Below are positions 4,133 through 64,000 of a DNA stretch of 64,000 nucleotides, one piece after another. Below the pieces are notes generated by a model. That model did no database searches. It was not told the origin of the DNA and worked only from the letters and a program-made list of their open reading frames with translations. The DNA lies in IMG/VR virus record IMGVR_UViG_3300009788_000106, positions 1 to 64,000 of that record; one strand, written 5' to 3'. This stretch comes from a virus. Both the position numbers and the translations under genes were made by a program. Every line of letters begins with the position of its first letter. Within the stretch, counting starts at the first letter, position 1.

Positions 4133-4137
4133 GACCC

Positions 4138-4166
4138 ATAGTGACACGGTTTTGCCTGGCTGTCAA
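4138..4166 (-). promoter_or_regulatory. class I promoter: TTGACA-N17(GCCAGGCAAAACCGTGT)-CACTAT, then gggtc-ATG
   Basis: Reverse complement of 4138-4166 read directly from the sequence. Confidence 0.5.
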
Positions 4167-4190
4167 CAGAAAAAGACATGCCGGCGATTT

Positions 4191-4212
4191 CTAGTTGACT
4201 TTAGTCAACTAG
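4191..4212. promoter_or_regulatory. perfect 9-bp inverted repeat CTAGTTGAC-ttta-GTCAACTAG upstream of the terminase gene
   Basis: Palindrome seen directly. It contains two opposed TTGAC hexamers and is followed 8 nt later by cgTACCATGTAcc, a class-II-like element. Confidence 0.4.
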
Positions 4213-4296
4213 CTGTGCGTACCATGTACCAGTAGCGAGATTCACGGTAACGCGCTTCCAGTGGGAGCACCTGGCAACTCTGATGGTGCCCTATCT

Positions 4297-5688
4297 ATGG
4301 AAATGCGCAGACAACAGTACGACGCCGGTGTTATGGCCGGGTATGAATCCCAACTGCAAGCGCAGGAGGATGCCGGCGTTAACTGGGCGGCGAACCTCAT
4401 TCCCCGAATGTCCAAGTACTGCCCGCACATCGCCACCGAACGCCAGACCTGTGCGCTGCTCCTGAATGATTATCTGGAGCTATTCTTCGGTGGGGCGGCT
4501 GGCGGTGGCAAGTCCGACTACCTGCTGATGGCAGCACTCCAGTACATCGACGTGCCAGGTTACAACGCACTGATCCTCCGCCGCACGTTTAGCCAATTGA
4601 ACATGGCCGACTCGATCCTACACCGTGCGCACCAGTGGCTGCAGGCAACCGATGCTCAGTGGGAAGGCAAACACAATCGGTATGTATTCCCAGCCGGGTC
4701 CTCGATCCAGTTTGGGTACCTGCAACACGAGAACGACAAGTATCAGTACGATTCTGCTGCCTTCCAGTTCATTGGGTTTGACGAGCTGTCCCAGTTCCTT
4801 GAGTCCCAGTACACATTCCTGTTCGGTCGCCTCCGCAAACCCGTCGGCTTCCCGGTACCACTACGCATGCGCGGAGCCTCGAACCCTGGCGGCGTGGGCC
4901 ACCTATGGTCCAAGAAACGGTTTATCGAGAAGAGCACCGTTCGCGGCAAGAGCATTTTTATCCCGTCGCTGCTAGAGGACAACCCTCATATCGATCAGGT
5001 GGCGTACGAGGAATCTCTATCGATGCTCGACCCCATCACGCGGGCGCAGAGACGCTGGGGCGACTGGAACGCCAGTCTCGAAGGTGCCCTGTTCAAGTTC
5101 GAATGGTTCCAAAACTACTGCGACATCGCGGCCGTTCCCTTTGAGTGCAGCCGCATGCGCTTCTGGGATCTTGCCGGCACGGAGGCCAAGAAGAAGTCCA
5201 CGAACCCTGACTGGACTGTCGGCGTTCGTGTGGCCATGGCGCCGAACGGTATTTGGTACATCGAGGACGTGCGCCGCGACCGCCTGTCTCCCCTCCGGGT
5301 TGAAGAACTGGTCTCGGCTACAGCCAAGCTGGACGGGCGGAATTGTCGTATCAGGATGGAGCAGGAACCCGGCGCCTCAGGCAAAACGGTTATCGCCCAG
5401 TACCTGCGGCAATTGGTAGGGTATGACTTTGCGGGTATCTGCGCCAGCGGCCCGAAGTATGTACGCTGGAGGCCCTTTGCGGCGCAGGCCGAAGGTGGCA
5501 ACGTCACACTAGTGAATGGACCTTGGAACCACGAATGGCTGCAGGAGATCTGTTCGGTTACACAGACCATGGAGCACGAACACGACGATCAGGCGGATGC
5601 CACGTCGGGTGCGTTCAACACATTGGCACTTGAGCCGGCCGTCGAATACGGCGTGTCCCGGCTAGGTGGCGGAAGGCGACAACGATGA
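4297..5688 (+). CDS. terL: terminase large subunit
   Basis: Walker A region LFFGGAAGGGKSDYLL, with ATPase and nuclease-domain architecture typical of TerL. The start is uncertain (ATG at 4297 or 4303; the ORF track begins at a GTG at 4261). Confidence 0.8.
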   Translation: MEMRRQQYDAGVMAGYESQLQAQEDAGVNWAANLIPRMSKYCPHIATERQTCALLLNDYLELFFGGAAGGGKSDYLLMAALQYIDVPGYNALILRRTFSQLNMADSILHRAHQWLQATDAQWEGKHNRYVFPAGSSIQFGYLQHENDKYQYDSAAFQFIGFDELSQFLESQYTFLFGRLRKPVGFPVPLRMRGASNPGGVGHLWSKKRFIEKSTVRGKSIFIPSLLEDNPHIDQVAYEESLSMLDPITRAQRRWGDWNASLEGALFKFEWFQNYCDIAAVPFECSRMRFWDLAGTEAKKKSTNPDWTVGVRVAMAPNGIWYIEDVRRDRLSPLRVEELVSATAKLDGRNCRIRMEQEPGASGKTVIAQYLRQLVGYDFAGICASGPKYVRWRPFAAQAEGGNVTLVNGPWNHEWLQEICSVTQTMEHEHDDQADATSGAFNTLALEPAVEYGVSRLGGGRRQR

Positions 5689-6302
5689 AATTTCAAAGAG
5701 CGGAGCGACCCATTGAAGTGAAGAAGGACGGTGACAGCTACGTCCCGGCAGGCAGGTGCCAGGTGCAGGAGGTACTATACGAAGGCCAAAACATAATGCC
5801 TTTGGTGCTGAGCATTGTTAAGCAGATCCCCATTCCACCAGACATTCGGGTGGACCACGATGCAGTCGTGGCGGAGGCCCTGTTTGGACTGAGCAAAGCA
5901 ATCCCCCTGTTTGATGGCACCCGTGGAGCCAAGTTTAGCACGTTCGCCTTCACCCGGATTCGTGGTGCCATCCTGGACATGATCCAAAGGGAACGCAAGT
6001 ACACGACCCGGTTTCAGCTTGAGCACCCTGCCGACTTCGATCTTCAAGAAAGCACAACGGACTTGGAAGCCGAGATCGATAAGCGCACACTGTTCCTCAA
6101 AGTGTCCAAGGTCCTCGAAGAGCGTGTACCGGTTCTAGAGGCGACTGTGATCATTCGGTCGTTCCTTGAAGGCCGCTCCGATGAGGAGATTGGGGCCGAA
6201 CTTGGGATGGACGAGTTCGACGTCCCCGATATCCGGTCACGGGGTTTGGCCATGGTCCGGGAACACTTCCCGGGCTGTCTCGCGATTATTAACAGGCAGT
6301 AA
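5685..6302 (+). CDS. sigma-70 family RNA polymerase sigma factor (regions 2 and 4)
   Basis: Region 2: DAVVAEALFGLSKAIPLFDGTRGAKFSTFAFTRIRGAILDMI. Region 4-like C-terminus: SDEEIGAELGMDEFDVPDIRSRGLAMVREH. The ATG overlaps the terL stop (ATGA). Confidence 0.7.
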   Translation: MKFQRAERPIEVKKDGDSYVPAGRCQVQEVLYEGQNIMPLVLSIVKQIPIPPDIRVDHDAVVAEALFGLSKAIPLFDGTRGAKFSTFAFTRIRGAILDMIQRERKYTTRFQLEHPADFDLQESTTDLEAEIDKRTLFLKVSKVLEERVPVLEATVIIRSFLEGRSDEEIGAELGMDEFDVPDIRSRGLAMVREHFPGCLAIINRQ

Positions 6303-10747: not shown

Positions 10748-10986
10748 CAAGTTCTGCTGCGGTTGCCACATCGCCGGGGTCTGGGGGTCACTCAGTCCTC
10801 GGCATTTTTTTGCCTGGCAAACCTTCTTGCGATAAGTAACAGTGAGAGGCGTTACCCGCACTTCAATGTCTCACTCGCCCACGTTGGTTAGAGCCGAGAC
10901 GAAGCCGCCCGATGCAGTCCTCTTAGAAGCAGCAACATTATCGGGTGGTTTCCTTTAACCCACTCACAACTGAAAAGGAGAAGCCA

Positions 10987-14695: not shown

Positions 14696-14964
14696 AGGTC
14701 CAGCAGTTCATTGCCAGGGCCGAGGGCGCCCCTATCCAAAAGGGCCGGGACTTCACATACAACCCGAAGGGCTGGCACGGCCGGAAGCAGTGGCACTGCC
14801 GCCACTGCGCCTTTGATACCCTTGATGGGGTTACACTCATGAAGCAGCATGTGTACGCACAGCACCTTCTCCCAGTGGCAGCACAGCTGGCCCAGACCCG
14901 TCCCATCGAGGCGGAGTTGTATGATCCCAGCGGGCAGCAAATCTTCGAGGTCCCAGGCCAATGA
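14602..14964 (+). CDS. hypothetical protein with a C2H2-like zinc-finger motif paralogous to the N-terminus of the downstream glycosyltransferase
   Basis: WHCRHCAFDTLDGVTLMKQHVYAQH matches CSACPFDIPDLLSMKQHISYMH in the next gene. The start is uncertain because the frame overlaps the upstream gene by about 95 nt. Confidence 0.3.
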   Translation: MSIRERTNDHGPGADQAQRPGLQTQNRTDSVEVQQFIARAEGAPIQKGRDFTYNPKGWHGRKQWHCRHCAFDTLDGVTLMKQHVYAQHLLPVAAQLAQTRPIEAELYDPSGQQIFEVPGQ

Positions 14965-16604
14965 GACCTCCCCAATTCATAACCAAGGTAGTTCGCAATA
15001 TACCGTGGTACTTCTGTTCGGCGTGTCCTTTTGACATACCGGACCTGCTGTCCATGAAACAGCACATTTCCTACATGCACAGCCCGGCCGACTGGAAGAA
15101 GCGGCACCCGCTGGTCGCGTGCATACTGGTGACGTCGGAGAAGCGCAAGGAGTTCTGGCCGGAGGCTGTGGCCGACTTCATGGCGCAGGACTGGCCACAC
15201 AAGGAGCTGGTGGTCGTCACGGAAAGCGTTGACGGTTTCCGCAGTTACTTGCCAGACGACACCAATGCTGTCCGGCTCATTAAGTGTGACCCGGACACGA
15301 CCATCGGCGAACGGCGCAACATGGCTGTACGTGCCAGCAAGGCAATTCACTTCGCTATCTGGGATGACGACGACCGCCAGGCACCATACGCCCTGTCCGA
15401 GAAACTAAAGCTGTTCAAGGGAGCGACACATGTCGTTGCTTGTTCAGAGCCTTGGTACTACGACGTGGATGAGGACCGCAGCTACCACTTCAAACACGGG
15501 GACCGCACCATCCTGGTCGGTGGCACAATGCTGTTCCATCGTGACGCCTGGCGCAACTACCCATTCCCGGATCGGTCACGGGCCGAAGACCAAATGTTCA
15601 TTAGGCGTATTGGCATGCACCGGCGTGCCACCTGTACACCTGAGCTAACCGTCGTGGGTATCCACAGCCGTAACACCTCCCGCAAGACTAGGACTGACGA
15701 CTGGGAACGTATGGGGGATAACATTGCTGCCGAGTTCTACTGCAAGGGCAGGCGCCGCGTGGCCCTGGCAAGCCTGTCGTGGGAGATGGGGCAAGTCACC
15801 ATTGACGGGATCGAAGCTCTGGTCCTTGAGGCGGCAAGACTCCAGAAGTTCAGGCGGGTTATCCCTGAGGTCATCATCGTGGACAATGGTTCAACCGACG
15901 GCACCCAGAAACTTATTGCCCTTCACCTTGACCGCTGGCGGAAGACCTGCCCGGTCCACATCATTTTCAACACCGAGAACAAGGGTAACTCGATCGCCCG
16001 AAACCAGATGCTTGACTTGGCGGTGGGGCTTGGCATGGATCACATCCTGTTCACCGACTGTGACCTCGAAGTCATCCCTCACTCAGTAGGCGGAATGGTA
16101 GACCACTTAGAGCAGCACCCAGAAGTCGGGTGCATCGGCATGTGGTCCGGTGGACATGCCAAGCAACGGCGACTCACTACCAAGCGCCTGCTAAGTCTGG
16201 AGGAGTTCCCAATCTTCAAGGATAGCAAGCAGGACGTCGCGTGGACACAGTATGGCTTGTTCCGCATGCAGCCCTTCGCCGACGGTATACGCTTCGAGAC
16301 AGGCGGTCCCTTTGGTGGCCCTGGCTGGGGACTGGAGGACAACGACATGCGCTACCAGCTTGAGTGCGCTGGCTGGCGTACAAACCACATGGAAGGCGCA
16401 ACGTACCTTCACCGCGCCCGCAGTTCCTCAGTCCGCATTCTAGAGAGCCAAGGGTTCAACCATAAACAAGCGTTTGAGGACCGCACCGAATTCCAGCGGC
16501 GCAAGTGGGCGGGTGTCGACGTGCCGATAATTAACAACAGATGGAAGCAGCAGAAAAAAGGTGGCCGGGTCACCGAACAGACTGAGAGGAGTTCAACAGC
16601 ATGA
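14961..16604 (+). CDS. bifunctional glycosyltransferase: N-terminal zinc finger plus two GT2 (GT-A fold) domains
   Basis: Domain 1: ILVTSEKRKEFW...AIWDDDD (DxD). Domain 2: VIIVDNGSTDGT...ILFTDCDLE. It lies inside the tail structural operon. Confidence 0.7.
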   Translation: MRPPQFITKVVRNIPWYFCSACPFDIPDLLSMKQHISYMHSPADWKKRHPLVACILVTSEKRKEFWPEAVADFMAQDWPHKELVVVTESVDGFRSYLPDDTNAVRLIKCDPDTTIGERRNMAVRASKAIHFAIWDDDDRQAPYALSEKLKLFKGATHVVACSEPWYYDVDEDRSYHFKHGDRTILVGGTMLFHRDAWRNYPFPDRSRAEDQMFIRRIGMHRRATCTPELTVVGIHSRNTSRKTRTDDWERMGDNIAAEFYCKGRRRVALASLSWEMGQVTIDGIEALVLEAARLQKFRRVIPEVIIVDNGSTDGTQKLIALHLDRWRKTCPVHIIFNTENKGNSIARNQMLDLAVGLGMDHILFTDCDLEVIPHSVGGMVDHLEQHPEVGCIGMWSGGHAKQRRLTTKRLLSLEEFPIFKDSKQDVAWTQYGLFRMQPFADGIRFETGGPFGGPGWGLEDNDMRYQLECAGWRTNHMEGATYLHRARSSSVRILESQGFNHKQAFEDRTEFQRRKWAGVDVPIINNRWKQQKKGGRVTEQTERSSTA

Positions 16605-32281: not shown

Positions 32282-32310
32282 ATACTACTGCGGTTTTGCC
32301 TGGCCGTCAA
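32282..32310 (-). promoter_or_regulatory. class I promoter TTGACG-N17(GCCAGGCAAAACCGCAG)-TAGTAT, then taggt-ATG
   Basis: Direct reading of the reverse complement. Confidence 0.5.
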
Positions 32311-32371
32311 TAGTTAATTTACCGAAAAGGCAAAATAGTTTGGGACCGGTTGCCCGGCCCCTTGGGATGGT

Positions 32372-32661: not shown

Positions 32662-32691
32662 ATGGTGCCACGGTTTTGCCTCGGTTGTCAA
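32662..32691 (-). promoter_or_regulatory. class I promoter TTGACA-N18(ACCGAGGCAAAACCGTGG)-CACCAT, then gagac-ATG
   Basis: Direct reading of the reverse complement. Upstream on the minus strand is a hairpin plus U-tract terminator (32692-32740) serving the preceding gene. Confidence 0.45.
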
Positions 32692-32748
32692 GCACCAAGG
32701 CAAAAAAATAGGGGCCGGTGTTCCGACCCCCCATGGTTCACCAGTGGG

Positions 32749-32970: not shown

Positions 32971-33118
32971 AATTAAGGATACCACGGTTTTGCCGATTTG
33001 TACCTTTTATTTTGCCGAAAACGCAAAATAGTTTGGCCCTAAAAATGTAGCCTTCCCCGACGGCAAACCGGTCAAACCTGCGTACTATGGAACATAGCAC
33101 GCAAGGTGGTGGAAACCT

Positions 33119-34663: not shown

Positions 34664-34969
34664 TATTCGGCATTTGCCGGGTTAAGATTGCATTGAAGGG
34701 GAAAAGGGGTGAAGGCCCCCTAAGGGGCCGGGGGTTATAGGTTTAATAGGTATAGTATAGGGGACTGGGAATACTCGTTATAGCCCTACCATCCCACACT
34801 GCCAAAGAACGGCAGTATGGGAATGGCAGGTCAAGGCCACACGCGGGCGCGCGTGGCACGGCAAGCTCTTCTCACTGGCAAGACACTGAGACCTGTGGGA
34901 CTGAGGGTCGCCCGCCCATCCCAGCCAGACTGAGACCACCGCCACCGCCCATCACCAGTGCCGACCGGG

Positions 34970-34991
34970 TTTTGTTTTTGCCCCGTACCAT
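34970..34991 (+). promoter_or_regulatory. class II motif TTTTGTTTTTGCCCCGTACCAT
   Basis: One of 5 copies of TTTGCCCCGTAC(C/T)AT, all on the plus strand upstream of genes. Confidence 0.35.
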
Positions 34992-35079
34992 GTTCGTGAA
35001 GGACAAGAAAACCAAACTTGACAGCACAAATTCAACGCGGTAGCTTAGGGAAGTCACCTCACGGGAAAGGGGAACAGGA

Positions 35080-39028: not shown

Positions 39029-39601
39029 ATGGCAACGGCACAACCGATCATTGAAATCAACAAAGTCACCATGGACCGGCTGGCCGGTATGGTCTACAAG
39101 ATATGTGGGGAGGCGTACCAGCAAATGCCGGAGTGCCACAAACGCTGGATCGACCTGGGAGACTTGGTCTCTGAGGCCTGGATCAAGGTGTACCGCAAAT
39201 GGCACCTGCATGACCCGACCCGCGGCAAGGACTCCACTTTCGTGTTCACCGTGGTCCGCAACACAATGCGTGATAGGCTGAAGCAGCTGCGGGTATACAC
39301 ACGGTTTTGTCACGTCGTCAGTCTTGAGGAAGACTCCATCAAAGAACCCGAACGGATTGACGCTGGCTCGGCAGAACAGTCGGAGGCAGAGGATCGTGTC
39401 GGTAAGTTCCTGGGACTGGCTTCCCCAGCCCTTCGCACATTCATGCAAGTCCATTTCTTCCAGCGGCAACCTGGCCGGCCAAACTTTAACAAGTTCCTGC
39501 CGGAGGTCCTCCGCCTCCGTCGGCTAACCGGCTGTTCGGTCCAGGACTTCATGCTGTGCGCAGGCGGAGAGGTGAACGGGGCAAATGCCAAAAGAGTATA
39601 G
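39029..39601 (+). CDS. ECF-like sigma factor (region 2 clearly present)
   Basis: DLVSEAWIKVYRKWHLHDPTRGKDSTFVFTVVRNTMRDRLKQ matches sigma-70 regions 2.1-2.4. Region 4 is less clear. Confidence 0.5.
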   Translation: MATAQPIIEINKVTMDRLAGMVYKICGEAYQQMPECHKRWIDLGDLVSEAWIKVYRKWHLHDPTRGKDSTFVFTVVRNTMRDRLKQLRVYTRFCHVVSLEEDSIKEPERIDAGSAEQSEAEDRVGKFLGLASPALRTFMQVHFFQRQPGRPNFNKFLPEVLRLRRLTGCSVQDFMLCAGGEVNGANAKRV

Positions 39602-41133: not shown

Positions 41134-41149
41134 CTTTGCCCCGTACTAT
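41121..41149 (+). promoter_or_regulatory. class II motif TGACTTGATTTGACTTTGCCCCGTACTAT
   Basis: Sequence read directly, 16 nt upstream of the folE ATG. Confidence 0.35.
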
Positions 41150-41165: not shown

Positions 41166-41747
41166 ATGGACGACGAGAGATTCACATGGAAGACTCAGTT
41201 ACGCTGTGCGCTGGCAAACATGATCGCGGCCACAAACCTATCCGCAGTGGTGGACCCTTCGCACCTTAAGGACACACCGGACCGGCTTGTCCGCATGTAT
41301 GACGAGATTTTTTGGGGCACCCGCAAGGACCCCGCAGCCGCACTAAACACTTCGTTTGCTGGGGACACCCATGACCAAATGATCATCGTTCAGGATGTGG
41401 AATTCACCAGTTGGTGTTCACATCACTTCTTGCCCTTTTCAGGCAAGTGGCACTTTGCCTATATACCAGGCGACTCCATCGTAGGGCTCTCCAAGATCCC
41501 ACGAATGATCGAAATACTGGCAGCCAGGCCCCAAGTCCAGGAAGGGCTCGCAGAGGACATAGTCGGAACATTCCAACAGACTGTACAGCCACTTGGTTGC
41601 GCAGTCGTCCTCGAAGCTACACACACATGCATGCAGGCCCGTGGCGTTCGCAAGAACGGTACCATGCGAACCACGGCCCTGCGCGGTGTGTTCCGTGACC
41701 CTCGGTCGTCCCACGTCAAGGCCGAATTTTTCACTGCAATCAAGTAA
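41166..41747 (+). CDS. folE: GTP cyclohydrolase I
   Basis: SWCSHHFLPFSGKWHFAYIP, the FolE active-site signature; RBS AAGGAGA. Confidence 0.8.
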   Translation: MDDERFTWKTQLRCALANMIAATNLSAVVDPSHLKDTPDRLVRMYDEIFWGTRKDPAAALNTSFAGDTHDQMIIVQDVEFTSWCSHHFLPFSGKWHFAYIPGDSIVGLSKIPRMIEILAARPQVQEGLAEDIVGTFQQTVQPLGCAVVLEATHTCMQARGVRKNGTMRTTALRGVFRDPRSSHVKAEFFTAIK

Positions 41748-46046: not shown

Positions 46047-47246
46047 ATGGCGACAAAAAAACGCAAGACGAAACAGCCGGCGTGGAAGGAAGACGCCCGG
46101 CGCAAGGTTAAGGAACGGTCACAAGGTGGCCGGTTCAAGCTGGTCGAGGGCGACAACATCATTCGCATTCTACCGAACAAGCAGGGCACCAACGAAGCCC
46201 CGTTCCTTGAGTTCCAAGCTCATGGCGACGTCGGCAAGGACAGGAAGTTCCTCACATGTGGCAAGTCCCATGGCGGCAAGTCCTGCTACATTTGCAAAAA
46301 GATCAGCTCTCTCGAACGCAGCGGTAAGGGGGCCAATGTCAAGAAGGCCGCAGCCATGGCAATCAAAGAACAGATGGTCCTACAAGTGGCCGTCGTGGAT
46401 GAGGACACCGGGCGCTGGCGTGGTCCCTACACTTGGTACCTGTCGCTTGGGGGCTCGAAGGCTCTGTCTTCAGCCGTCCTTCGTCTGATCACCACGAAAC
46501 GCCGCAACTACGACCACCCGGTCGAGGGCTTCAACCTTGCGATCAACCGCACCGGCGCCGGCCTCGACACTCGGTATGGTCCGCCCGAACCGGACATGGA
46601 TTCCAGTGAAGTCCCCGAAGACATCCTGGACAAGCTCAAGGAACTCGAAGAAGTGGCCGGCAAGTACGATGCCTCTGCCTGCGAATCCGCCTACACTGGT
46701 CGCGAGATTGCGGCTGATGATGATGAGGATGAGGACGCCGACGAGGAGGACTCGGTCGATGAGGATGAGGAGGATGGCGACGACTCCGATGACTCCGATG
46801 AGGACGAGGAAGAGGAGGAAGCCCCGCCGCCCAAGAAGACCAAAAAGAAGGCGCCGGTAAAGCGCAAGGCCAAGCCTGCACCCGTCGAGGATGAGGAGGA
46901 CGAGGACGAGGATGACGACGATGAGGATGAGGCTCCTCCGCCGCCAAAGAAAAAGCCCCGCAAGAAGGCCAAGCCGGCTCCCGTCGAGGACGAGGATGAA
47001 GACGAGGACGAGGACGAGGATGAGGACGAGGACGAGGACGAGGATGACCCGCCTCCGCCACCAAAGAAAAAGACCCGCAAGCGCAAGCCGGCTCCCGTCG
47101 AGGAAGACGAGGACGAGGACGAGGACGACGACGACCCCGATGATGACGATGAGGACGACGACCCCGATGATGACGATGAGGACGAGGAAGACGACCCGCC
47201 TCCGCCACCGCCTAAGAAGCGCAGGAAGGTGAAGCGCAAGAGTTAG
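46047..47246 (+). CDS. putative zinc-binding ssDNA-binding protein (gp32-like) with a long acidic repeat tail punctuated by KKxKPAPVE modules
   Basis: CGKSHGGKSCYICKK Cys/His cluster in an N-terminal domain of about 200 aa. The C-terminus is about 200 aa of D/E runs with 4 copies of PPPKK..K(K/R)KAKPAPVE. The gene sits between polA and a RecA-like gene. Confidence 0.4.
   Translation: MATKKRKTKQPAWKEDARRKVKERSQGGRFKLVEGDNIIRILPNKQGTNEAPFLEFQAHGDVGKDRKFLTCGKSHGGKSCYICKKISSLERSGKGANVKKAAAMAIKEQMVLQVAVVDEDTGRWRGPYTWYLSLGGSKALSSAVLRLITTKRRNYDHPVEGFNLAINRTGAGLDTRYGPPEPDMDSSEVPEDILDKLKELEEVAGKYDASACESAYTGREIAADDDEDEDADEEDSVDEDEEDGDDSDDSDEDEEEEEAPPPKKTKKKAPVKRKAKPAPVEDEEDEDEDDDDEDEAPPPPKKKPRKKAKPAPVEDEDEDEDEDEDEDEDEDEDDPPPPPKKKTRKRKPAPVEEDEDEDEDDDDPDDDDEDDDPDDDDEDEEDDPPPPPPKKRRKVKRKS
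46690..47235 (+). repeat. low-complexity GAG/GAC (Asp/Glu) coding repeats with periodic K-rich modules
   Basis: Runs of gaggacgag interrupted by 4 copies of cc(g/t)cc(g/a)cc(a/c)aagaa..aagcc(t/g)gc(a/t)cccgtcgag. Confidence 0.6.
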
Positions 47247-47319: not shown

Positions 47320-48234
47320 ATGGCAAAACGCAAACCAACACTAGCATCCATACGGCAACGGCTGAAGCACGCCCCGCAAGACTGGCAACCTCGGTCCTAT
47401 ATTGACTTGGGTGAGCACTTGAATCCTGTGATGGGGCACGCCGACAAAGGGCTCCCCTATGGCTGTATCTGTGAAGTGTCCGGCAAGCCTTCTTGTGGCA
47501 AGTCCGTGTTCTGCGGAGACATAGCCGCGGCCTGCCAGGTACAGGACGGGGCCGATATCATTTGGCTGGACTGTGAAGACAGCTTTGAGCAACCGGCAAC
47601 CGAAGACGAAGGCTACTGGTTCCAGAAGCGCGGGCTGACTTGCCACGAAGGGGCCAAGAACTTCTACCTGATCAAACCCTACATTGGCAAGTTTGGGTCC
47701 ACTGAACGGTTGTCCTGCGCTCAGGACATGACTAAAGAGGCAGAGTCCCTGCTAGAGGCCCTGCACAACTACGACCCGAAGGGTAAGCGTGTCCTTGTCC
47801 TTGACAGTGTTGCTAACCTCATGCCAGCGGCCATGGGCGCGGCTGGGTTCGACCAGTCAATGAACACTGAGCAATCGCTACCGAAGTTCCTCGCGCTGCT
47901 CATGCGGCGCTGGGTGCCACTATTCAGGCAGTACAACACTGTCGGCCTATTCGTTAACCAGCTTCGTGAGAACCCCGGCCAAATGTTCGGGGACAAGACG
48001 TACACACCGGGCGGCAATGCCTTCAAGTTCGGCGCCCACGTCCGGGTTCGGATGCGTAAAATTATGTTGTTACCCTCCGCTAAGGTCAAGGGCAAAATAC
48101 TTGGCATTGGCGGCAGGATCAGGAATGACAAGAACAAGGCGGGTGGACTCGAACGGAGCGAGTGCGATTACAAGATCCTATTTCGTGGCGACTCCAAGTT
48201 CCTACCGGCAGGCACCATCAAGTACAAGAAGTGA
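47320..48234 (+). CDS. RecA-family recombinase/ATPase
   Basis: VSGKPSCGKSVFCGDIAAA (Walker A) and RVLVLDSVANLMPAAM (Walker B / RecA-like). Confidence 0.55.
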   Translation: MAKRKPTLASIRQRLKHAPQDWQPRSYIDLGEHLNPVMGHADKGLPYGCICEVSGKPSCGKSVFCGDIAAACQVQDGADIIWLDCEDSFEQPATEDEGYWFQKRGLTCHEGAKNFYLIKPYIGKFGSTERLSCAQDMTKEAESLLEALHNYDPKGKRVLVLDSVANLMPAAMGAAGFDQSMNTEQSLPKFLALLMRRWVPLFRQYNTVGLFVNQLRENPGQMFGDKTYTPGGNAFKFGAHVRVRMRKIMLLPSAKVKGKILGIGGRIRNDKNKAGGLERSECDYKILFRGDSKFLPAGTIKYKK

Positions 48235-53686: not shown

Positions 53687-53703
53687 GTTTTGCCCCGTAC
53701 CAT
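53686..53703 (+). promoter_or_regulatory. class II motif AGTTTTGCCCCGTACCAT, 5 nt upstream of the queD ATG
   Basis: Sequence read directly. Confidence 0.35.
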
Positions 53704-53708
53704 AGGGC

Positions 53709-54317
53709 ATGAGAATTACGAAAGACTTCAAATTTGAGGCGTCGCATGTTGTTCCGGGGCATCCTGGCAAGTGCCAGAGATTGCACGGCCATTCGTACGT
53801 CCTGCACATCACAGTCCATGGCACTGTACACCCGGCCACCGGGTTCATCGTGGACTTTGGGGACATCAAAGCCATGGTCCAGCCACTGATCGATACCCTC
53901 GACCACCGGCACCTAAACTTCTTCATTGCGAATCCCACCGCCGAGAACATTGCGGCATGGTTCGGCCAGCGCCTATCCCGTATCGTGGATCGCTACGCCA
54001 TCACCGGGCTGGAAGTCACAGTGCTTGAGACGGCCACGTCCAGCGCCACATGGGACTCCCGGCTGGAAGTCGATGCCAAGCACGGGCAGAACCCTTCAAT
54101 CTACGGCACGGGCATTCCAGTGGCCCATGATGGCCTGTCGCCCCAAGCCCAAATCGGCCCGGTCATCATCCCAGCGGCAGAGTACGAATCCTACATGACC
54201 ACCTTCCGGCTAGCCCGCCGAGCCTGCGCCCGGAGGATCAACCTAATCCGCGAGCACGGGCGGGAGTTGCTGCCGGCAAAGTACATGAACCAACTCGGTA
54301 CAGTGAAGGAGCAATAG
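53709..54317 (+). CDS. queD: 6-carboxy-5,6,7,8-tetrahydropterin synthase
   Basis: CQRLHGHSY (Cx3HGH) plus catalytic His/Glu pattern typical of the QueD/PTPS fold. Confidence 0.8.
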   Translation: MRITKDFKFEASHVVPGHPGKCQRLHGHSYVLHITVHGTVHPATGFIVDFGDIKAMVQPLIDTLDHRHLNFFIANPTAENIAAWFGQRLSRIVDRYAITGLEVTVLETATSSATWDSRLEVDAKHGQNPSIYGTGIPVAHDGLSPQAQIGPVIIPAAEYESYMTTFRLARRACARRINLIREHGRELLPAKYMNQLGTVKEQ

Positions 54318-55082
54318 GTGAAATTTCCCATCGCAGAACAGTTCATCTCACTACAAGGCGAAGGCCGGTATACCGGTACACTCATGCAGTTCATCCGCCT
54401 GGCTGGCTGCAACGTCGGCCGACGCACCGGAGTTCGGAGTCCGGCTCTGGCACAGTCATTGGCCCTGCCGGTCTTTCAGCACCATAAGGTGTGCGAGTCC
54501 GCCATCGGGCAAGAGTTCATGTGCGACACGGACTACGGTGCCAAGTTTGACTTGACAGCCCTACAAATGGCAGACCTGATCCGCAAGTCCGGTACCAAGC
54601 ACGTCTGCCTAACAGGCGGTGAACCTCTGCTACACGATGTCCTCATGGTCTCGGCGCTGTGCCAGGAGTTACAGGTCCAGCTTCACATTGAGACGTCTGG
54701 GACCAAGGTAATCCCCGACGAGCTCAGTGCTGACCACGTCGCCTGCTCGCCGAAGGCCGGGTTCCTATTTGAGAATTGGGGGCACGTGGATGAGTACAAG
54801 TTCGTCATCGGCCCCGATGCCGGGACCCCGAGTGACATTGTAGGTAAGCTAACTGGGTTCTTCGCTTTGGGTATTGCCGCCCGGCAGCAGGACGACCCAG
54901 ATCAAGACCAGTTTGCGCCGACTGAGACCCCGGCGAACCCGTTTGCCGATGTGTACGTCCAGCCAGTGAACGGGGTGCGCACAGTGGACGCCTCAAGCAT
55001 GGCAACCTGCCTGGCCGTGGTCCGGCTGCGGCCTCATTGGGCTGTGTCCTTCCAGACTCACAAACTACTTAATCTGCCCTAA
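54318..55082 (+). CDS. queE: 7-carboxy-7-deazaguanine synthase with atypical Cys spacing (C-x27-C-x9-C)
   Basis: N-terminal ISLQGEGRYTGTLMQFIRLAGCN and CDTDYG are QueE hallmarks. A 27-residue insert sits between the first and second cluster cysteines. Confidence 0.65.
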   Translation: MKFPIAEQFISLQGEGRYTGTLMQFIRLAGCNVGRRTGVRSPALAQSLALPVFQHHKVCESAIGQEFMCDTDYGAKFDLTALQMADLIRKSGTKHVCLTGGEPLLHDVLMVSALCQELQVQLHIETSGTKVIPDELSADHVACSPKAGFLFENWGHVDEYKFVIGPDAGTPSDIVGKLTGFFALGIAARQQDDPDQDQFAPTETPANPFADVYVQPVNGVRTVDASSMATCLAVVRLRPHWAVSFQTHKLLNLP

Positions 55083-55096
55083 TCGCAAATGAGTGC

Positions 55097-55125
55097 TTGA
55101 CGTCTCGGCAAAACCGTGTCACTAT
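55097..55125 (+). promoter_or_regulatory. class I promoter TTGACG-N17(TCTCGGCAAAACCGTGT)-CACTAT
   Basis: Sequence read directly, upstream of the vWA gene. Confidence 0.45.
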
Positions 55126-55181
55126 TGGATTGTCACCCGGCAAAACACGGGCAGGCAAAAGGAAAAAGGAAAACACAAACC

Positions 55182-56222: not shown

Positions 56223-56235
56223 AAACAACCTGCAG

Positions 56236-56261
56236 GGAGGGGCAAACCACAGCCCCTCCCA
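56236..56261 (+). terminator. hairpin GGGAGGGGcaaaccacaGCCCCTCCC
   Basis: Perfect 8-bp stem directly after the vWA stop; one of a family of GGGAGG...CCTCCC hairpins. No U-tract. Confidence 0.35.
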
Positions 56262-56280
56262 AGCTCAGGCAAAATAGTAG

Positions 56281-56309
56281 TTGACATTTGCCGGTTTGCC
56301 TGGCACTAT
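56281..56309 (+). promoter_or_regulatory. class I promoter TTGACA-N17(TTTGCCGGTTTGCCTGG)-CACTAT
   Basis: Identical over about 45 nt to the copy at 60233. Confidence 0.5.
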
Positions 56310-56325
56310 TGGTTAGAGGTTAAAA

Positions 56326-57399
56326 ATGAAAAAGTCGCAAATCAGAAAGCTCATCCCGAAGGTACCGGACCTAAGACGGGCGCACAAGGCACTCATCACC
56401 GCCGACGTGACCGACAGGGTCATCGCCCTCCGCACGGTCATGGATTGGTTTGATGTGTATACCACCTTGGTTCGATCTCAGGTCATCGCCGCAGGCGGGC
56501 AACGCAAACTGGACCTGGCAGCTAAGATCAAACCTCTGGCAGCGCGGCACGACACTCCGGCATTCGAGGCCGAGACCGCACTGATTCAGGCTATCCGCAT
56601 GTTGGAGTCGGCGCTGGCACCAGCGGTCCCTACCCTCAAGCTACCTCGGATCAATGACGCATGGGCCGAGTACGAATCAAAGAAGATTGCGCTGGAGCAC
56701 AAGGCAGCGAAGGCCATAGTAAAGTTTGCTGCTCTCAAGGCCGGGCTGGACCAGTTCTTCAAACCCTTGGGACTAACCTTTAAGTTTAGCAAGGACCTTC
56801 CCAAGCCCCGGCAGTTCGACGCCACTGGCCGCGTCCTGTACTCCTTCGACTACGCTGGCACCTTGGTGCAAGAGCTCAAGGCCAATGGCTTGGACTCGGT
56901 CCTCATGGGCCAAGCCCCGGCAATCCTCAAGGCGGCTTCGCTTTCAGTCAGCAACGGCAAGCTCTTAATCTCAATGGCCAAGCTCATGGACTTGTTACCG
57001 GGCCTGCTGGTTTCCATCTACGGGCTGGGGGCAAGTAGCAAGAGCACGTCAACGCCCGCTACGGCGCCTCCGGCAACGCCTAAGGCCACACCGACACCGA
57101 ACCCGACCCCAACGACGCCGAAGCCCCCGAAGGCCACACCAGCCCCGCCGATAGGTGGACTGAGTCCTGAGGCTGCCAAGTACTTCCGGGCTGGCACGCA
57201 ACAGCTTTTGTTCGACCGCCTCATCAAGGTAGCAGGCGGGCGCATTTCCATGGCCGACTTGTACGACGGCCTGAGCGCGGGCGACCCCCGCCGCATGATC
57301 CTCAGCATCCACCAGAAGGGCGTGAAGCTCGGACTGTGGGAGGCAAACCGCTACGGCAAAATGGTACACTTTGATTGGACAGGAGGACCGCACGTATGA
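56326..57399 (+). CDS. hypothetical protein with a Pro/Thr-rich linker
   Basis: ORF with RBS GAGGT; a TPATAPPATPKATPTPNPTPTTPKPPKATPAPP linker separates two domains. Confidence 0.45.
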   Translation: MKKSQIRKLIPKVPDLRRAHKALITADVTDRVIALRTVMDWFDVYTTLVRSQVIAAGGQRKLDLAAKIKPLAARHDTPAFEAETALIQAIRMLESALAPAVPTLKLPRINDAWAEYESKKIALEHKAAKAIVKFAALKAGLDQFFKPLGLTFKFSKDLPKPRQFDATGRVLYSFDYAGTLVQELKANGLDSVLMGQAPAILKAASLSVSNGKLLISMAKLMDLLPGLLVSIYGLGASSKSTSTPATAPPATPKATPTPNPTPTTPKPPKATPAPPIGGLSPEAAKYFRAGTQQLLFDRLIKVAGGRISMADLYDGLSAGDPRRMILSIHQKGVKLGLWEANRYGKMVHFDWTGGPHV

Positions 57400-58301
57400 A
57401 AATGTCCGCTGCCGAAATTGCCAAGCTACCCAAAGGTGTCTTGGCAACCGAGAGGTGTGACAGTCAAAGATGCGGCAAGCCGCTGATTGGCCTGCTCATC
57501 TGGCGTTCAAAGGACAGGGCTCACGCCTACTGTTCAAACGCCTGTTTTGAAGAATCCGAACCAGCAAGATCGAGCGGTGGCGAACCCACCAAAAAAGGAG
57601 ACAAAACCATGATTAGCAAAGGCAAGAAACGCAACAAGAAGGCCGCCGCCGCACCCGAGGTGGATGAGGAAGAGGACATGATGGAAGAGGAGGAAATGGA
57701 GGACGAGGACGAGACCCCAGCACCGAAGCAGAAGGCCAAAAAGAAACGCAAGTCGAAGCCGGCCCCGGTCGAGGAGGACGAGGACGAGGACCCGGAGGAC
57801 GAGGAGGACGAGGACGAGGACGAGGAGGACGACCCGGAGGACGACCCGGAGGACGACCCGGAGGACGACCCGGAGGACGACCCGGAGGACGACCCGGAGG
57901 ACGGCGACGACTCCGATGAGGAGGACCCGGAGGATGAGGAGGACCCGGAGGAAGAGACCGTGCCGGTCAAGGTCAAGAAGCCACGGGGCAACCGGGTCAA
58001 ACCTGGCAACCCGACCAAGAAGGTCACCGCCAAGGAACGCAAGGCGAACCTCAAGGCCATGAAGGGCAAGACCAGTCCGTTCCGCGCCGGGACTCGGTGT
58101 GACATGCTGTTTCGGAAGCTGGCCTCGGGCAAACGGTTCAAAAGCATGGATACCCTTGTCAAGGGGATCGACCCGCCGCCCGGAGATCCGCAGCGTATGG
58201 TCAGTATGATCCGCGCCAAGGGTCTTGAGAATGGCCTGTACACCATCGTGAACGACGCTGGTTCCTGGCAGATGACCGAGAACCACTTGGCAACTGACTA
58301 G
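57396..58301 (+). CDS. Cys-cluster protein with a highly acidic repeat core (6x DDPE) and a basic C-terminal domain
   Basis: N-terminus CDSQRCGKP...HAYCSNAC; a KKRKSKPAPVEEDEDED module as in the 46047 product; 12-nt repeat gacgacccggag x6 at about 57829-57900. Confidence 0.45.
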   Translation: MKMSAAEIAKLPKGVLATERCDSQRCGKPLIGLLIWRSKDRAHAYCSNACFEESEPARSSGGEPTKKGDKTMISKGKKRNKKAAAAPEVDEEEDMMEEEEMEDEDETPAPKQKAKKKRKSKPAPVEEDEDEDPEDEEDEDEDEEDDPEDDPEDDPEDDPEDDPEDDPEDGDDSDEEDPEDEEDPEEETVPVKVKKPRGNRVKPGNPTKKVTAKERKANLKAMKGKTSPFRAGTRCDMLFRKLASGKRFKSMDTLVKGIDPPPGDPQRMVSMIRAKGLENGLYTIVNDAGSWQMTENHLATD

Positions 58302-59775: not shown

Positions 59776-60229
59776 GCAACTACTCACGATTGAAGTTGAG
59801 ACCCCGGATGGCTACCCTCAGGAGTCTCTAACCGCAGACATTGAAGGCCACCTTAAACGCCAGGTCCAACAGCTATGCGAGTTCCAAGCAAGGCGTATCG
59901 GTATGTGTGGGGTCGTGGCCGACTCCGAGACCCCGCCGACATTCCGGCTGGTGGTCGAGGAGCAGTGTGCCTTGGTGCCAGTGACCCGCACGCAGGAACT
60001 CATAAGCCGCTGGGCCATTGACGAGCTGAAGGCAACCGGCACACCGGAGACCCTGCCACTGGTCGAGAATAGCCTACTCATGATGCCGCTTCGCTGGGTG
60101 TGCCAGGCCAAGCTATTCATCGCCCTGATCGAGACGTACCCGGTGCTGAAGAAGCAGCCGGACTGGGTGCGCACGGCAATGACCCTGGCGGGGAAGGTTC
60201 AAACACAGTTCGGTCTCACGGCAAAATAG
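59765..60229 (+). CDS. hypothetical protein (154 aa)
   Basis: ATG at 59765 within the ORF 59663..60229. Confidence 0.4.
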   Translation: MPIKQLLTIEVETPDGYPQESLTADIEGHLKRQVQQLCEFQARRIGMCGVVADSETPPTFRLVVEEQCALVPVTRTQELISRWAIDELKATGTPETLPLVENSLLMMPLRWVCQAKLFIALIETYPVLKKQPDWVRTAMTLAGKVQTQFGLTAK

Positions 60230-60232
60230 TAG

Positions 60233-60261
60233 TTGACATTTGCCGGTTTGCCTGGCACTAT
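60233..60261 (+). promoter_or_regulatory. class I promoter TTGACA-N17(TTTGCCGGTTTGCCTGG)-CACTAT, followed by hairpin GGGAGGcaaaaacaaCCTCCC (60268-60288)
   Basis: Sequence read directly; duplicate of the 56281 copy, including the upstream GGCAAAATAGTAG. Confidence 0.5.
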
Positions 60262-60315
60262 TGGTTTGGGAGGCAAAAACAACCTCCCAGCCGCAAGGCA
60301 AGAAAGGTTAATATC

Positions 60316-60469: not shown

Positions 60470-61372
60470 GTGCCGAAGGTTTGCTACACTACCAAGGCGT
60501 TCAACCCGGTCCACACCGCGGCGATCCAGAACGCAAACGCAATACTTCATGAGTACCAGCAGCAGGGCTTCACCCTGACCCTGCGGCAGCTGTACTACCA
60601 GTTCGTCGCACGGGGCATCCTGGCCAACGACCAGAAGAACTACAAGTGGATCGGGGACGTCCTTGGGGACGCACGGCTGGCCGGGCTGGTTGACTGGCAC
60701 CACCTTGAGGACCGAACCCGCAACCTGCGTGGCAATCAGCACTGGGCTTCACCGGCTCAACTAGTGTCGCACACGGCAAGCTCATTCAAGATCGACAAGT
60801 GGGCGGACCAGCCGTATCGAGTCGAGGTCTGGATCGAGAAGGATGCCTTGCTCGGCGTGCTGGACTCGATCTGCCCTAAGCTGGACGTGGACTACTTCTC
60901 ATGCCGGGGCTACACCAGCCTATCTGAAATGTGGAAGGCCGGGCAACGGCTGAAGCGATCTGCCGAGCAAGGCAAGAAGGTGGTGGTGCTACACTTCGGT
61001 GACCACGACCCCAGCGGCATGGACATGTCCCGGGACATCCTGTCTCGGCTCAGGCTGTTCATGGATGAGACCGGCACGGAGATACGGGTTCTCCGCTGTG
61101 CCTTGAACATGGCCCAGATTGACCGGCTGAACCCTGTGCCGAACCCGGCAAAGCTCTCTGACAGCAGGGCCAAGCGATACATTGCCGAGTATGGCTCAAG
61201 CTCATGGGAACTGGATGCCTTGGACCCGCGGGAACTGGTCCGGTTGATCAAGGCCGGGGTCACCAAGTTCCGGGACGATGAGCGATGGTACGCGGCTCTT
61301 GCCAGGGAACAGGCCGGCAGGCACCAGCTCTCACGGGTCGCCGAGGCCATGGCCGCAGGACAATTTGAATAG
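60470..61372 (+). CDS. Topoisomerase VI subunit A / Spo11-like mini-A protein (winged-helix Tyr plus Toprim)
   Basis: LRQLYYQFVARG (5Y-CAP-like tyrosines); Toprim glutamate VEVWIEKDALLGVL; DxD motif VVLHFGDHDPSGMDM. Confidence 0.5.
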   Translation: MPKVCYTTKAFNPVHTAAIQNANAILHEYQQQGFTLTLRQLYYQFVARGILANDQKNYKWIGDVLGDARLAGLVDWHHLEDRTRNLRGNQHWASPAQLVSHTASSFKIDKWADQPYRVEVWIEKDALLGVLDSICPKLDVDYFSCRGYTSLSEMWKAGQRLKRSAEQGKKVVVLHFGDHDPSGMDMSRDILSRLRLFMDETGTEIRVLRCALNMAQIDRLNPVPNPAKLSDSRAKRYIAEYGSSSWELDALDPRELVRLIKAGVTKFRDDERWYAALAREQAGRHQLSRVAEAMAAGQFE

Positions 61373-62009: not shown

Positions 62010-62024
62010 TCAGCAAATCAGGGC

Positions 62025-62053
62025 TTGACAGCCAGGCAAAACAGGAGTAACCT
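62025..62053 (+). promoter_or_regulatory. class I promoter TTGACA-N17(GCCAGGCAAAACAGGAG)-TAACCT, then tagtc-ATG (leaderless)
   Basis: Sequence read directly. Same tagtcATG junction as the minus-strand copy at 3772. Confidence 0.45.
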
Positions 62054-62058
62054 TAGTC

Positions 62059-62373: not shown

Positions 62374-62688
62374 ATGCCGAAACAAGAACTGAAACTGAAG
62401 CACCCCGAGCGCCTATGGGTGCTGTCTGTTGAATACACCGAAGGTGGTGGCTCTGAGGTCTGGTGGCCAGTCAACAACCCGCCATGGAGACTGTACGAGG
62501 CAGGGGAAGAGTTCGAGATCACCTTTGCCCGCTCCGTTGACGGCAAGGTGGTGCTTATGGAACTGAGGGATGAGCAGGGCCGGCATGCGGGCTGGGACGT
62601 TGACAAGTGCCCCGCCGAACGCTCGGATTCGGACGACTTGTTTGAGCTTTGCCCCGTACCATGTAACAAACCGGAGACCACCGCATGA
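62374..62688 (+). CDS. hypothetical protein (104 aa)
   Basis: RBS AAAGGAGATCG. Its 3' end contains a class II motif (62647-62662). Confidence 0.4.
   Translation: MPKQELKLKHPERLWVLSVEYTEGGGSEVWWPVNNPPWRLYEAGEEFEITFARSVDGKVVLMELRDEQGRHAGWDVDKCPAERSDSDDLFELCPVPCNKPETTA
62647..62662 (+). promoter_or_regulatory. class II motif CTTTGCCCCGTACCAT
   Basis: Sequence read directly. Confidence 0.35.
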
Positions 62689-63240: not shown

Positions 63241-63280
63241 CCGCTGGATTGCGTTTCCCGCAGGCACAACTCAAGGGGCA

Positions 63281-63465
63281 AAGGGGAAGAGAACCAAGGG
63301 AGAAGGGAAGGCAAAATGAGACGCTAACGGCGATAACCAACTCGGGCAAGACAGGTAGACGGGCGCTGCTCCAGACAATAGGGGCAAGGCGTCTAATACC
63401 TGTTAGGGGCAACACACCGGGGCAGAGGAGACAGAGGACTACAGAGTGACTAGGGAACCAGCAGG
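63281..63465. repeat. five dispersed copies of an AGGGGCAA-like 8-mer (with one degenerate copy) in a 260-nt non-coding region
   Basis: caAGGGGCAAAgg, atAGGGGCAAGg, ttAGGGGCAACa, ccGGGGCAGAgg, gcAGGGGCAAAg. Confidence 0.35.
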
Positions 63466-63502
63466 GGCAAAGCCCTAAACCAAGTAGAAGGAGTACACAG
63501 CC

Positions 63503-64000
63503 ATGATAAAGAAAGCCCAATCGCGGCAGAACCGGCAAAAGGGTAGTAAGGCAAAACCCAAAAAACGATCGGCAGGCGCTGCCTCGACGACCACCAAAAC
63601 ACGGACTACGAGGGTCGGCACGAAATCCAAGGCTTCTGCCGGCAAGCCCATTGCCAAGGCGGCAAAACCGATACATTCAAAGAAGGCAACGGCAAAGAAG
63701 AAGGCACCGGTAAAGTTGAGACCGGTACCGGCAAGGCCAAAGGCAAAGGCAACGGTAAAGAAGAAGGCAAAGAAGTCCAGTATCGGGCCGGTCTCAGCGG
63801 CAAGACTCAAGAAGGCAAATGCCGCCACCAAGGAGGCCACCAAGGGCTTACCGAAGATGCCAGTCGGCAAGAAGTCAGCGGCCGACCAGTTGGCAGAACA
63901 ACAGGCGGCAAACCTCAAACAGAGTGCCAAGCACCGGGACCATCAGGCAAAGCTGGTTGCTCAGGTCAAGGGCGAGTGCGAGGATGTGCCGGTCAAGCGG
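63503..64000 (+). CDS. lysine/alanine-rich histone-H1-like basic protein, 3'-truncated by the window end
   Basis: RBS AGAAGGAG. The frame is open to the window end; the product is rich in KKxAKK/AKPKA. Missing from the ORF track because no stop is reached. Confidence 0.5.
   Translation, partial: MIKKAQSRQNRQKGSKAKPKKRSAGAASTTTKTRTTRVGTKSKASAGKPIAKAAKPIHSKKATAKKKAPVKLRPVPARPKAKATVKKKAKKSSIGPVSAARLKKANAATKEATKGLPKMPVGKKSAADQLAEQQAANLKQSAKHRDHQAKLVAQVKGECEDVPVKR

Follow-up and report, generated by a model that had tools for sequence, protein, structure and literature searches.

A family of predicted sigma-70-type promoters carrying a repeated GGCAAA word, mostly before putatively leaderless genes, in an uncultured marine-sediment phage

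Nine promoter-like elements in a tailed-phage genome

The 64,000-nucleotide (nt) stretch analysed here (positions 1 to 64,000 of IMG/VR record IMGVR_UViG_3300009788_000106, the window) makes up most of a ~68-kb uncultured tailed-phage genome assembled from metagenomes. It contains nine promoter-like elements, which are best interpreted as promoters of the sigma-70/sigma-A type that head small early units, each with its own terminator and most of them leaderless. This promoter and leaderless reading, predicted from sequence geometry and conservation in relatives, is held with good confidence. The joint reading, in which these early promoters would be served by a regulator that binds the word GGCAAA, is put at slightly better than even, and the regulator part of the proposal, inferred from the behavior of the word, at a little below even.

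Seven of the elements, designated class I (3806−, 4166−, 32310−, 32691−, 33004−, 55097+ and 62025+), follow the pattern TTGAC-N5(6)-GGCAAAACCGTG-N-YAnnnT, with GGCAAAAC invariant in all seven. The class I block is asymmetric and keeps a constant direction relative to transcription in every copy. The other two, a variant pair at 56281+ and 60233+, have TTGACA and CACTAT as in class I, but their spacer is TTTGCCGGTTTGCCTGG, with the word in the opposite orientation. The span originally flagged, 60233–60288, consists of promoter 8 and its leader hairpin. The features are listed below in the order of promoter number (aa, amino acids; ORF, open reading frame; ORFan, ORF without family matches; UTR, untranslated region).

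3778–3806, − strand: class I promoter 1, SNF2 helicase gene; TTGACG-17-TATTTT with box GGCAAAACCGTG; ATG at 3772, 5 nt past the hexamer.
3807–3846, − strand: upstream part of cassette 1; inverted TTTGCC at −13 to −8 from TTGAC (3814–3819); terminator hairpin 3825–3846 with tail ATTTTTTTGCC.
4138–4166, − strand: class I promoter 2, 90-aa ORFan; TTGACA-17-CACTAT and box; ATG at 4132; the sole copy without an upstream word.
32282–32323, − strand: class I promoter 3, DUF6900 gene; TTGACG-17-TAGTAT with box GGCAAAACCGCA; upstream GGTAAA at 32318–32323; ATG at 32276; hairpin 32342–32361 upstream.
32662–32730, − strand: class I promoter 4, 94-aa ORFan; TTGACA-18-CACCAT and box; inverted TTTGCC at 32699–32704; terminator hairpin 32711–32730; ATG at 32656.
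32976–33016, − strand: class I promoter 5, 73-aa ORFan; degenerate −35 GGTACA; box GGCAAAACCGTG; hexamer TATCCT; upstream GGCAAA; ATG at 32970.
55084–55181, + strand: class I promoter 6, VWA-domain gene; upstream CGCAAA; TTGACG-17-CACTAT and box at 55097–55125; ATG at 55182.
~50 nt before 55182, + strand: leader of promoter 6; two extra GGCAAAA words and a small hairpin, 55136–55151.
56235–56325, + strand: variant promoter 7; GC-rich hairpin 56235–56260; upstream GGCAAAATAGTAG; TTGACA, TTTGCCGGTTTGCCTGG and CACTAT at 56281–56309.
Before the ATG at 56326, + strand: leader of promoter 7, short, with AGAGG.
60220–60315, + strand: variant promoter 8 (the flagged span); 60220–60266 identical to promoter 7; promoter proper 60233–60261; ATG at 60316 opening a 50-aa basic ORF, with a Topo mini-A-like gene next.
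60268–60288, + strand: 5′-UTR hairpin of promoter 8, GGGAGG-CAAAAACAA-CCTCCC, containing another GGCAAAA.
62012–62058, + strand: class I promoter 9, 101-aa ORFan; upstream AGCAAA; TTGACA-17-TAACCT with box GGCAAAACAGGA; ATG at 62059.
10781–10823, + strand: non-promoter palindrome; terminator-like hairpin 10781–10802 past the protease gene, then TTTTTTTGCC-T-GGCAAACC.

Chance origin of the family was excluded because the 23-mer TTGACRGCCAGGCAAAACCGTGG gave four matches with up to three mismatches (0.01 expected) and GGCAAAACCG seven exact matches (0.15 expected). The family was also recovered independently by a repeat finder (repeats D7, D12, D14, I1, I4 and I22). There are nine copies; no further copy was found elsewhere in the window or in the 4.1 kb of contig past its end. 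A first-pass annotation of the window had placed all nine copies at the correct positions and strands, and its estimate of about 45 identical nt for the variant pair was close to the 47 nt found (100% identity, 56268–56314 and 60220–60266). It had, however, counted about ten copies and called them near-identical. The 12-nt box has a mean pairwise identity of 0.89 among the seven class I copies. The corresponding values are 0.46 for the 5 nt that precede it, 0.54 for the −10 hexamer taken with the 5 nt that follow, and 0.38 for codons 2–5. Similarity is thus highest in the box, and the spacer is indeed conserved beyond what sigma-70 recognition needs, as that annotation had held. The spacer length of 17 bp is shared by the class I copies (18 bp in one); the variant pair has another spacer sequence.

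The spacer core had also been described as palindromic. This applies to the copy at 10809 and in part to the variant pair, but the class I promoters are asymmetric, and what recurs is the word GGCAAA(A). TTTGCC-T-GGCAAA, the sole perfect palindrome of this word, was the supposed core-only copy; it exists, at 10809–10821 (~2 nt off the span first given, 10809–10825), and was rejected as a family member, being a terminator tail whose GGCAAACC half is not conserved in the related contig L260.

Predicted promoter architecture and leaderless starts

Three proteins led to related phage contigs: L260 was located by its sigma protein (77% protein identity), L264 and L265 by their VWA proteins (73% and 70%), and L266 by the helicase C-terminus (81%). 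Promoters found in these contigs belong to the same family. The −35 hexamer is TTGACA or TTGACG in eight of nine window copies (GGTACA in copy 5) and in all five of the relatives' promoters. The spacer is 17 bp long (18 in copy 4), TGn precedes the hexamer in seven of nine copies, and A2 and T6 of the −10 hexamer are invariant. All nine copies are intergenic and co-oriented with the gene directly downstream. At the level of sequence, the promoter-like architecture first proposed for them therefore holds.

In six copies the ATG (3772, 4132, 32276, 32656, 32970 and 62059) begins exactly 5 nt after the hexamer, the hexamer starting 11 nt before it, and lies 34 nt (35 in one) past the T of TTGAC. 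All six open real ORFs and are the same starts used by public gene callers; for SNF2, at P0001, the public call uses 3772. Because the hexamer ends 5 nt before the ATG, the transcript would begin on the start codon or no more than a base or two away from it. Such starts leave no space for a ribosome-binding site. Consistent with this, bacterial leaderless genes are marked by a TANNNT signal ~12 nt upstream of the start codon (PMC3160421). Both promoters of L260 read CACCAT-TGGTTT-ATG, with the hexamer starting 12 nt before the ATG. No Shine-Dalgarno (SD)-like tetramer was present in five of the six leaderless class I copies, and one was present in 45 of 51 other genes. The claim of leaderless genes behind the copies is thus supported by geometry in six of nine, but not at 55097, 56281 and 60233, where leaders of ~50, ~10 and ~50 nt (promoters 6, 7 and 8) carry SD-like sequences. 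A small hairpin opens the leaders of promoters 6 and 8.

The same architecture bears on the question of which polymerase reads the elements. A polymerase with a phage sigma, or a host polymerase altered by a phage factor, might use the GGCAAAACCGTG block as an extended −10/spacer determinant, making the elements middle or late promoters. The phage-sigma version, already raised at first pass, is helped by the two sigma-70-family proteins that the phage encodes (5685–6302 and 39029–39601), by the constant position and direction of the block in seven copies, and by a second promoter family, TTTGCCCCGTACYAT, which likewise has an invariant stretch next to its −10 and, 17 bp away, no good −35. Against it, the elements are the genome's best matches to the housekeeping consensus (TTGACA, 17 bp, TGn). 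Both the variant pair and the L264 ortholog of promoter 6, moreover, have an inverted TTTGCC in place of the block and an unchanged −35, which a direction-sensitive contact would not tolerate. Some promoter must act with unmodified host polymerase on entry, and the family promoters are the obvious candidates; the −10 of the terminase gene, TACCAT here, is TATAAT in L260, and the hexamers look sigma-A-like. Reading with a phage sigma or by an altered polymerase is judged quite improbable. TGn is read by sigma region 3.0, and extracytoplasmic function (ECF)-type sigmas are without this region. The block was also tried as an ECF-type −35/−10 pair and rejected, the AAC-to-CGT distance fitting 16–17 bp in no register.

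The GGCAAA word and its conservation in relatives

The window has 35 occurrences of GGCAAAA where 6.6 are expected, more than half of them (19) within the 7% of its DNA that is intergenic. The recurring unit is GGCAAA(AY), 6–8 nt long and found in either orientation. GGCAAA or TTTGCC is present in the spacer of all 14 family promoters (nine in the window and five in relatives). A second copy, (G/C/A)GCAAA or TTTGCC, stands at −13 to −8 from TTGAC, 7 bp upstream of the −35 hexamer, in 12 of the 14 promoters from four contigs, and in one more it is displaced by 1 nt. Within the window the second copy takes the forward forms GGCAAA, CGCAAA, AGCAAA and GGTAAA and the inverse form TTTGCC in promoters 1 and 4; promoter 2 is without it.

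Aligned DNA segments of the window and its relatives were 69–81% identical. Near-identical contigs from other samples (99.7–100% identity) carry no conservation information. The three-way alignment of promoter 7 with its L264 and L265 orthologs showed conservation of the hairpin stems, AGGCAAA, GTTGAC, TTTGCC, CCTGGCA and the SD sequence, with a variable mid-spacer; TTTGCC was kept beside the −35 hexamer in the variant pair and in both orthologs. In the L264 ortholog of promoter 6, TTGACG was kept and the spacer read TCTTTGCCGATCTGCGT in place of the window's TCTCGGCAAAACCGTGT, that is, with the word inverted. This retention of the word in orthologs, also in inverted form, while neighboring bases drift indicates selection on the word itself. 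A conserved, box-less sigma-70-like promoter at 35018, present also in L266, indicates that the polymerase can do without the word and that the word marks a subset of promoters.

Restricted to a subset of promoters, tolerated in both directions and under its own selection, the word looks like a protein-binding site and not a polymerase contact. The proposal that an operator overlaps each promoter accordingly survives in part: relatives keep the word, in one case inverted, but there is no palindrome in the class I promoters, and the word is asymmetric and occurs twice per promoter.

A pattern search for TTGACN6GGCAAAACCGTG in IMG/VR, metagenome contigs and genome contigs returned, among the matches listed, single matches in coding DNA only (for example ...GKTV... 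codons), never more than one per contig. Relatives sought through the SNF2 helicase (best match 47% identity) were discarded; L012, L013, L015, L256, L258 and L259 are unrelated phages without the present promoter family. One of them, L015 (a JGI 3300072490 contig), has between 1798 and 13967 a promoter family of its own, TTGCAA-N-TGCGCAnnTGCGCAA-TACTAT, in ~10 intergenic copies. Its palindromic TGCGCAnnTGCGCA spacer is an independent example of an operator-like spacer in phage promoters and serves as an analogy only.

Recombination and DNA shape as alternatives to a binding site

Copies may also be conserved with no regulatory role, being kept alike by recombination or gene conversion so that the patch provides homology for swapping ORFan modules, as proposed for the promoter-early stem-loop (PeSL) cassettes of T4-type phages (Arbiol et al. 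2010, PMC2839356; Comeau et al. 2014, PMC4122927). The combination of stem-loop and promoter fits the description of PeSL units in these papers. GC-rich stem-loops lie upstream of seven of the 14 promoters (copies 1, 3, 4 and 7 and three in relatives), the others having no clear stem-loop. Genes behind family promoters have been replaced, window 1685–4191 (the SNF2 and 90-aa genes) corresponding to L260 1491–2655 (170-aa and 181-aa genes). In this one comparison, with crossover points not resolved, the swapped segments lie between conserved flanks of 69–78% identity and each gene is behind a family promoter. The 47-nt identity of the variant pair and the likeness of L260 promoters Pa and Pb even in their first codons point the same way. 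Gene conversion would nevertheless homogenize whole patches, whereas identity here peaks over 8–12 nt and is 0.46–0.54 in the adjacent segments. The word also survives moved and inverted in orthologous promoters, which looks like selection on the word and not on the patch. Recombination explains the spread of the family but not the 8–12-nt peak or the inverted word. As the reason for the conservation it is thought unlikely, and it is compatible with a regulator, so that both could be true.

The replacement genes in L260 encode a 170-aa protein with Y4mA_C and a 181-aa protein, unrelated to SNF2 and the 90-aa ORFan. Their flanks are a conserved convergent terminator (window 1617–1645) and the terminase promoter region.

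The words might instead act through DNA shape, the upstream CAAAAT/T-run serving as an UP-element-like contact for the alpha subunit and the spacer A-tract, about two turns off, adding in-phase curvature. The proximal UP subsite spans ~−46 to −38, about where the upstream word sits. The start-to-start distance of the two words is 19–23 bp, and both word orientations occur, orientation being irrelevant to shape. PeSL promoters, too, have an AT-rich stretch upstream of the −35 (PMC4122927, PMC2839356). However, the G/C part of the word (GGC/GCC) is as conserved as the A-run, for which shape alone has no explanation; TTTGCC has three T's, below a classical A-tract; and promoters 6 and 8 have further words in their leaders, past the start. 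An effect of shape alone is regarded as the least probable of the alternatives, and a protein-binding site remains the preferred interpretation of the word.

Proposed mechanism and search for a regulator

In the proposed mechanism, host sigma-A-type polymerase would read the early promoters into mostly leaderless mRNAs. Each copy would head a short unit, mostly of small ORFans or accessory genes (the genes downstream of copies 2, 4, 5 and 9 are ORFans), and several have the stem-loop or terminator of the previous unit just upstream, a layout of phage early-gene cassettes. A sequence-specific protein, phage- or host-encoded, would bind the GGCAAA words bracketing the −35 hexamer and would control the whole promoter set jointly. 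Its likely effect would be shut-off after the early phase: as the promoters come close to consensus in both the −35 and the extended −10, repression is the most likely mode.

Several observations weigh against this interpretation. The 5-nt gap between hexamer and ATG is one shorter than the commonest −10-to-start distance. GGCAAA is a short word and is common genome-wide on the A-rich coding strand (132 occurrences against ~29 by our own base-composition estimate). The copies are paralogous, so counts across them are not independent, and some upstream words overlap terminator T-tracts (TTTTTTTGCC), the T-run possibly coming from the terminator. Besides the two sigma-like proteins, no helix-turn-helix (HTH) or ribbon-helix-helix (RHH) protein was recognized among ~70 ORFs with Pfam, NCBIfam and PHROGs; about half of the ORFs have no family match, so absence is not proven. 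The idea that the 94-aa early protein is an RHH repressor was rejected, its AlphaFold model consisting of two long helices in a helical hairpin (mean predicted local distance difference test score, pLDDT, 77.5).

A bolder version, to which we give little credence, would have a novel phage regulator of no detectable HTH family grip the −35 flanks in any orientation at −47/−24, and +8 in the leadered promoters, and switch a regulon of leaderless early genes, one protein turning the early promoters off and −35-less promoters on. If true, an unrelated lineage of phages, one with two sigma factors of its own, would possess a switch of the MotA kind.

A second promoter-like family and other candidate sites

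The second family, TTTGCCCCGTACYAT, has four exact copies, all on the + strand (41135–41149 before FolE, 53689–53703 before QueD, and 34977–34991 and 62648–62662 before two other units; 0 expected), and L266 has two. Looser CGTACYAT sites precede the terminase gene (4218–4225) and the helicase gene (33081–33088). The QueD site is kept base for base in L264, as are TACCAT, a gap of 5 nt and the ATG, the 5 nt being AGGGC here and TCAGC in L264; by this geometry the QueD copy is predicted to be leaderless. Since the L260 terminase site reads GCGTATAAT, the second-family hexamers are suggested to be sigma-A-like −10 elements.

In the second family TTTGCC stands 3 nt from the hexamer (TTTGCC-CCG-TACCAT). 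Because this family has the word and no good −35, a single protein that binds GGCAAA might conceivably serve both families, which is speculation.

A 416-nt gene-free region past the helicase gene (34664–35079) contains a GC-rich hairpin, GGGGTGAAGGCCCCCTAAGGGGCCGGGGG, a site of the second family (class II) and, 27 nt on, the box-less promoter TTGACA-17-TAGCTT. No Rfam match was found in this region. The class II site and the box-less promoter can both be aligned with L266, where an extra leaderless small ORF lies in between and a similar GC-rich hairpin upstream.

Three further sites were recorded. Between the divergent promoters of the 90-aa and terminase genes, 4191–4212 is a perfect 9-bp inverted repeat, CTAGTTGAC-TTTA-GTCAACTAG, conserved in L260 as TTAGTTGAC-TATT-GTCAACTAA and containing TTGAC on each strand; a different protein might use it as an operator. 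In the right half of the window, the plain sigma-70 consensus is matched best by TTGACC-17-CATAAT (48061–48089, − strand, 10/12); this site is antisense inside recA with TTTGCC directly upstream and could be an antisense promoter or chance. The intergenic stretch 63241–63502, just ahead of the gene for a 325-aa basic protein, has ~7 GGGGCAA(A/G)-like words in 260 nt and may be an array of GGCAAA-related sites or a replication/partition site.

Gene content and host of the phage

Near-identical contigs are present in JGI 3300028610, JGI 3300024265 and ENA ERZ27251120, and megablast gave no DNA-level match to a cultured phage. The Ga0209976 sample is a Sumatra deep-sediment metagenome (bioRxiv 10.1101/2021.07.29.453957). 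Structural genes encode terminase, portal, a MuF-like protein, an S78 protease and an HK97-type capsid protein; a 1467-aa ORF is probably the tape measure. The capsid protein and the probable tape measure suggest a siphovirus-like phage. Neither a repressor nor an integrase gene was found, and the phage looks lytic. Genes for replication and repair encode UvsW-like and DnaB-like helicases, a primase, PolA (family A), RecA, a clamp-loader-like ATPase and an SMC-like protein, and others encode the SNF2 helicase, ThyX, FolE, QueD and radical-SAM proteins and the two sigma-70-family proteins. No RNA families or tRNAs were found in the window.

The sigma factors, RecA and PolA encoded by the phage point to a bacterial host. 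An archaeal virus was considered since one source sample was used in an Asgard-virus study and the terminase shares 43% identity with its counterpart in Methanobacterium phage psiM2. This reading was rejected: there is no A/T-rich box at ~−26 from the ATG, and sigma factors, RecA, a DnaB-like helicase, a DnaG-like primase and PolA are encoded.

The first sigma gene (5685–6302, + strand, 205 aa, regions 2 and 4, TIGR02937 E = 1.9e-16) lies between the terminase and portal genes. The second (39029–39601, + strand) is of the sigma-70 family. The terminase-sigma-portal order recurs in L260 (sigma 77% identical) and in L262 (35%), and L258 has a Sigma70_r4 protein near its terminase gene. No small-terminase gene was evident upstream of the large-terminase gene. 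FolE, QueD and a QueE-like radical-SAM protein (41166–41747, 53709–54317 and 54318–55082) suggest 7-deazaguanine DNA modification; no DpdA/TGT-like gene was recognized. ThyX and a family 2 glycosyltransferase inside the structural module are also present (75–464 and 14961–16604).

The very basic 50-aa ORF behind promoter 8 is followed by a 300-aa protein (60470–61372, + strand; PHROG 6247 'DNA topoisomerase', E = 2e-101) that promoter 8 would also drive and that may be of the Topo mini-A type. A gp32-like ssDNA-binding protein with an acidic repetitive tail (46047–47246) and a 301-aa protein with DDPE repeats (57396–58301) contain the long Asp/Glu-rich repeats that dominate the direct-repeat output. 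The 325-aa product of 63503–64000+ is a Lys/Ala-rich, histone-H1-like basic protein without a family match.

Comparison with known systems

The closest parallel is with the PeSL cassettes. Apparently shared with them are a repeated GC-rich stem-loop or terminator joined to a strong sigma-70-like early promoter that is A/T-rich upstream of the −35, the placement of units around small ORFans, and gene replacement between units as the difference between related phages. There is, however, no sequence homology, and the present phage is siphovirus-like and from marine sediment, not a T4-like myovirus. Most copies here are predicted to be leaderless, and the conserved part is the GGCAAA word on both sides of the −35. 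The stem-loop lies upstream of only about half of the present copies, and recombination is deduced from a single comparison. With an HK97-type capsid, the 1467-aa ORF and a family A polymerase in the phage, the present cassettes are an analogue of PeSL and not a member.

Among regulated phage promoters, gp71 of mycobacteriophage L5 recognizes 13-bp asymmetric 'stoperator' sites, one of them over the −35 of P-left, and Streptomyces phage phiC31 has conserved inverted repeats at its early promoters. As here, a short asymmetric repeated site lies over sigma-A-type promoters, the phages often have leaderless genes, and one protein serves many promoters. Unlike those phages, the present one has no repressor or integrase that was found and looks lytic; its sites, candidates only, are at promoters and leaders and not scattered in operons, and they come as two per promoter in variable orientation. 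Lambda CII, with sites TTGC-N6-TTGC flanking the −35 of P-RE, P-I and P-aQ, activates promoters with a poor −35. The repeated half-sites straddling the −35 and the resemblance of the half-site to TTGCC are common to both, whereas here the −35 is near consensus, the spacing is 19–23 bp and not 10, and orientation varies where CII sites are direct repeats.

The leaderless genes of Actinobacteria and Deinococcus-Thermus (PMC3160421, PMC4007540, PMC3898074) resemble the present ones in the TANNNT −10 ~12 nt upstream, the lack of an SD sequence and the ATG at the (here predicted) RNA 5′ end. They differ in that the predicted leaderless starts of this phage belong mainly to a single promoter family, which has a strong −35, most other phage genes using an SD sequence.

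Meaning of the promoter family

Repeated phage early promoters, operators inside promoters, leaderless phage genes and promoter/terminator cassettes are all known already, and the finding overturns no current ideas. What is new is that the GGCAAA words are dual and come in either orientation, that the geometry is leaderless, and that all this occurs in a phage with two sigma genes. The family lets the transcription units of the phage be mapped though its host cannot be grown, suggests a host that translates leaderless mRNA, and supplies a short word with which to fish for the regulator. It extends the idea of a mobile promoter/terminator cassette from T4-like phages to a very different phage, and the two sigma genes, two promoter families and one box-less promoter together point to a multi-step programme.

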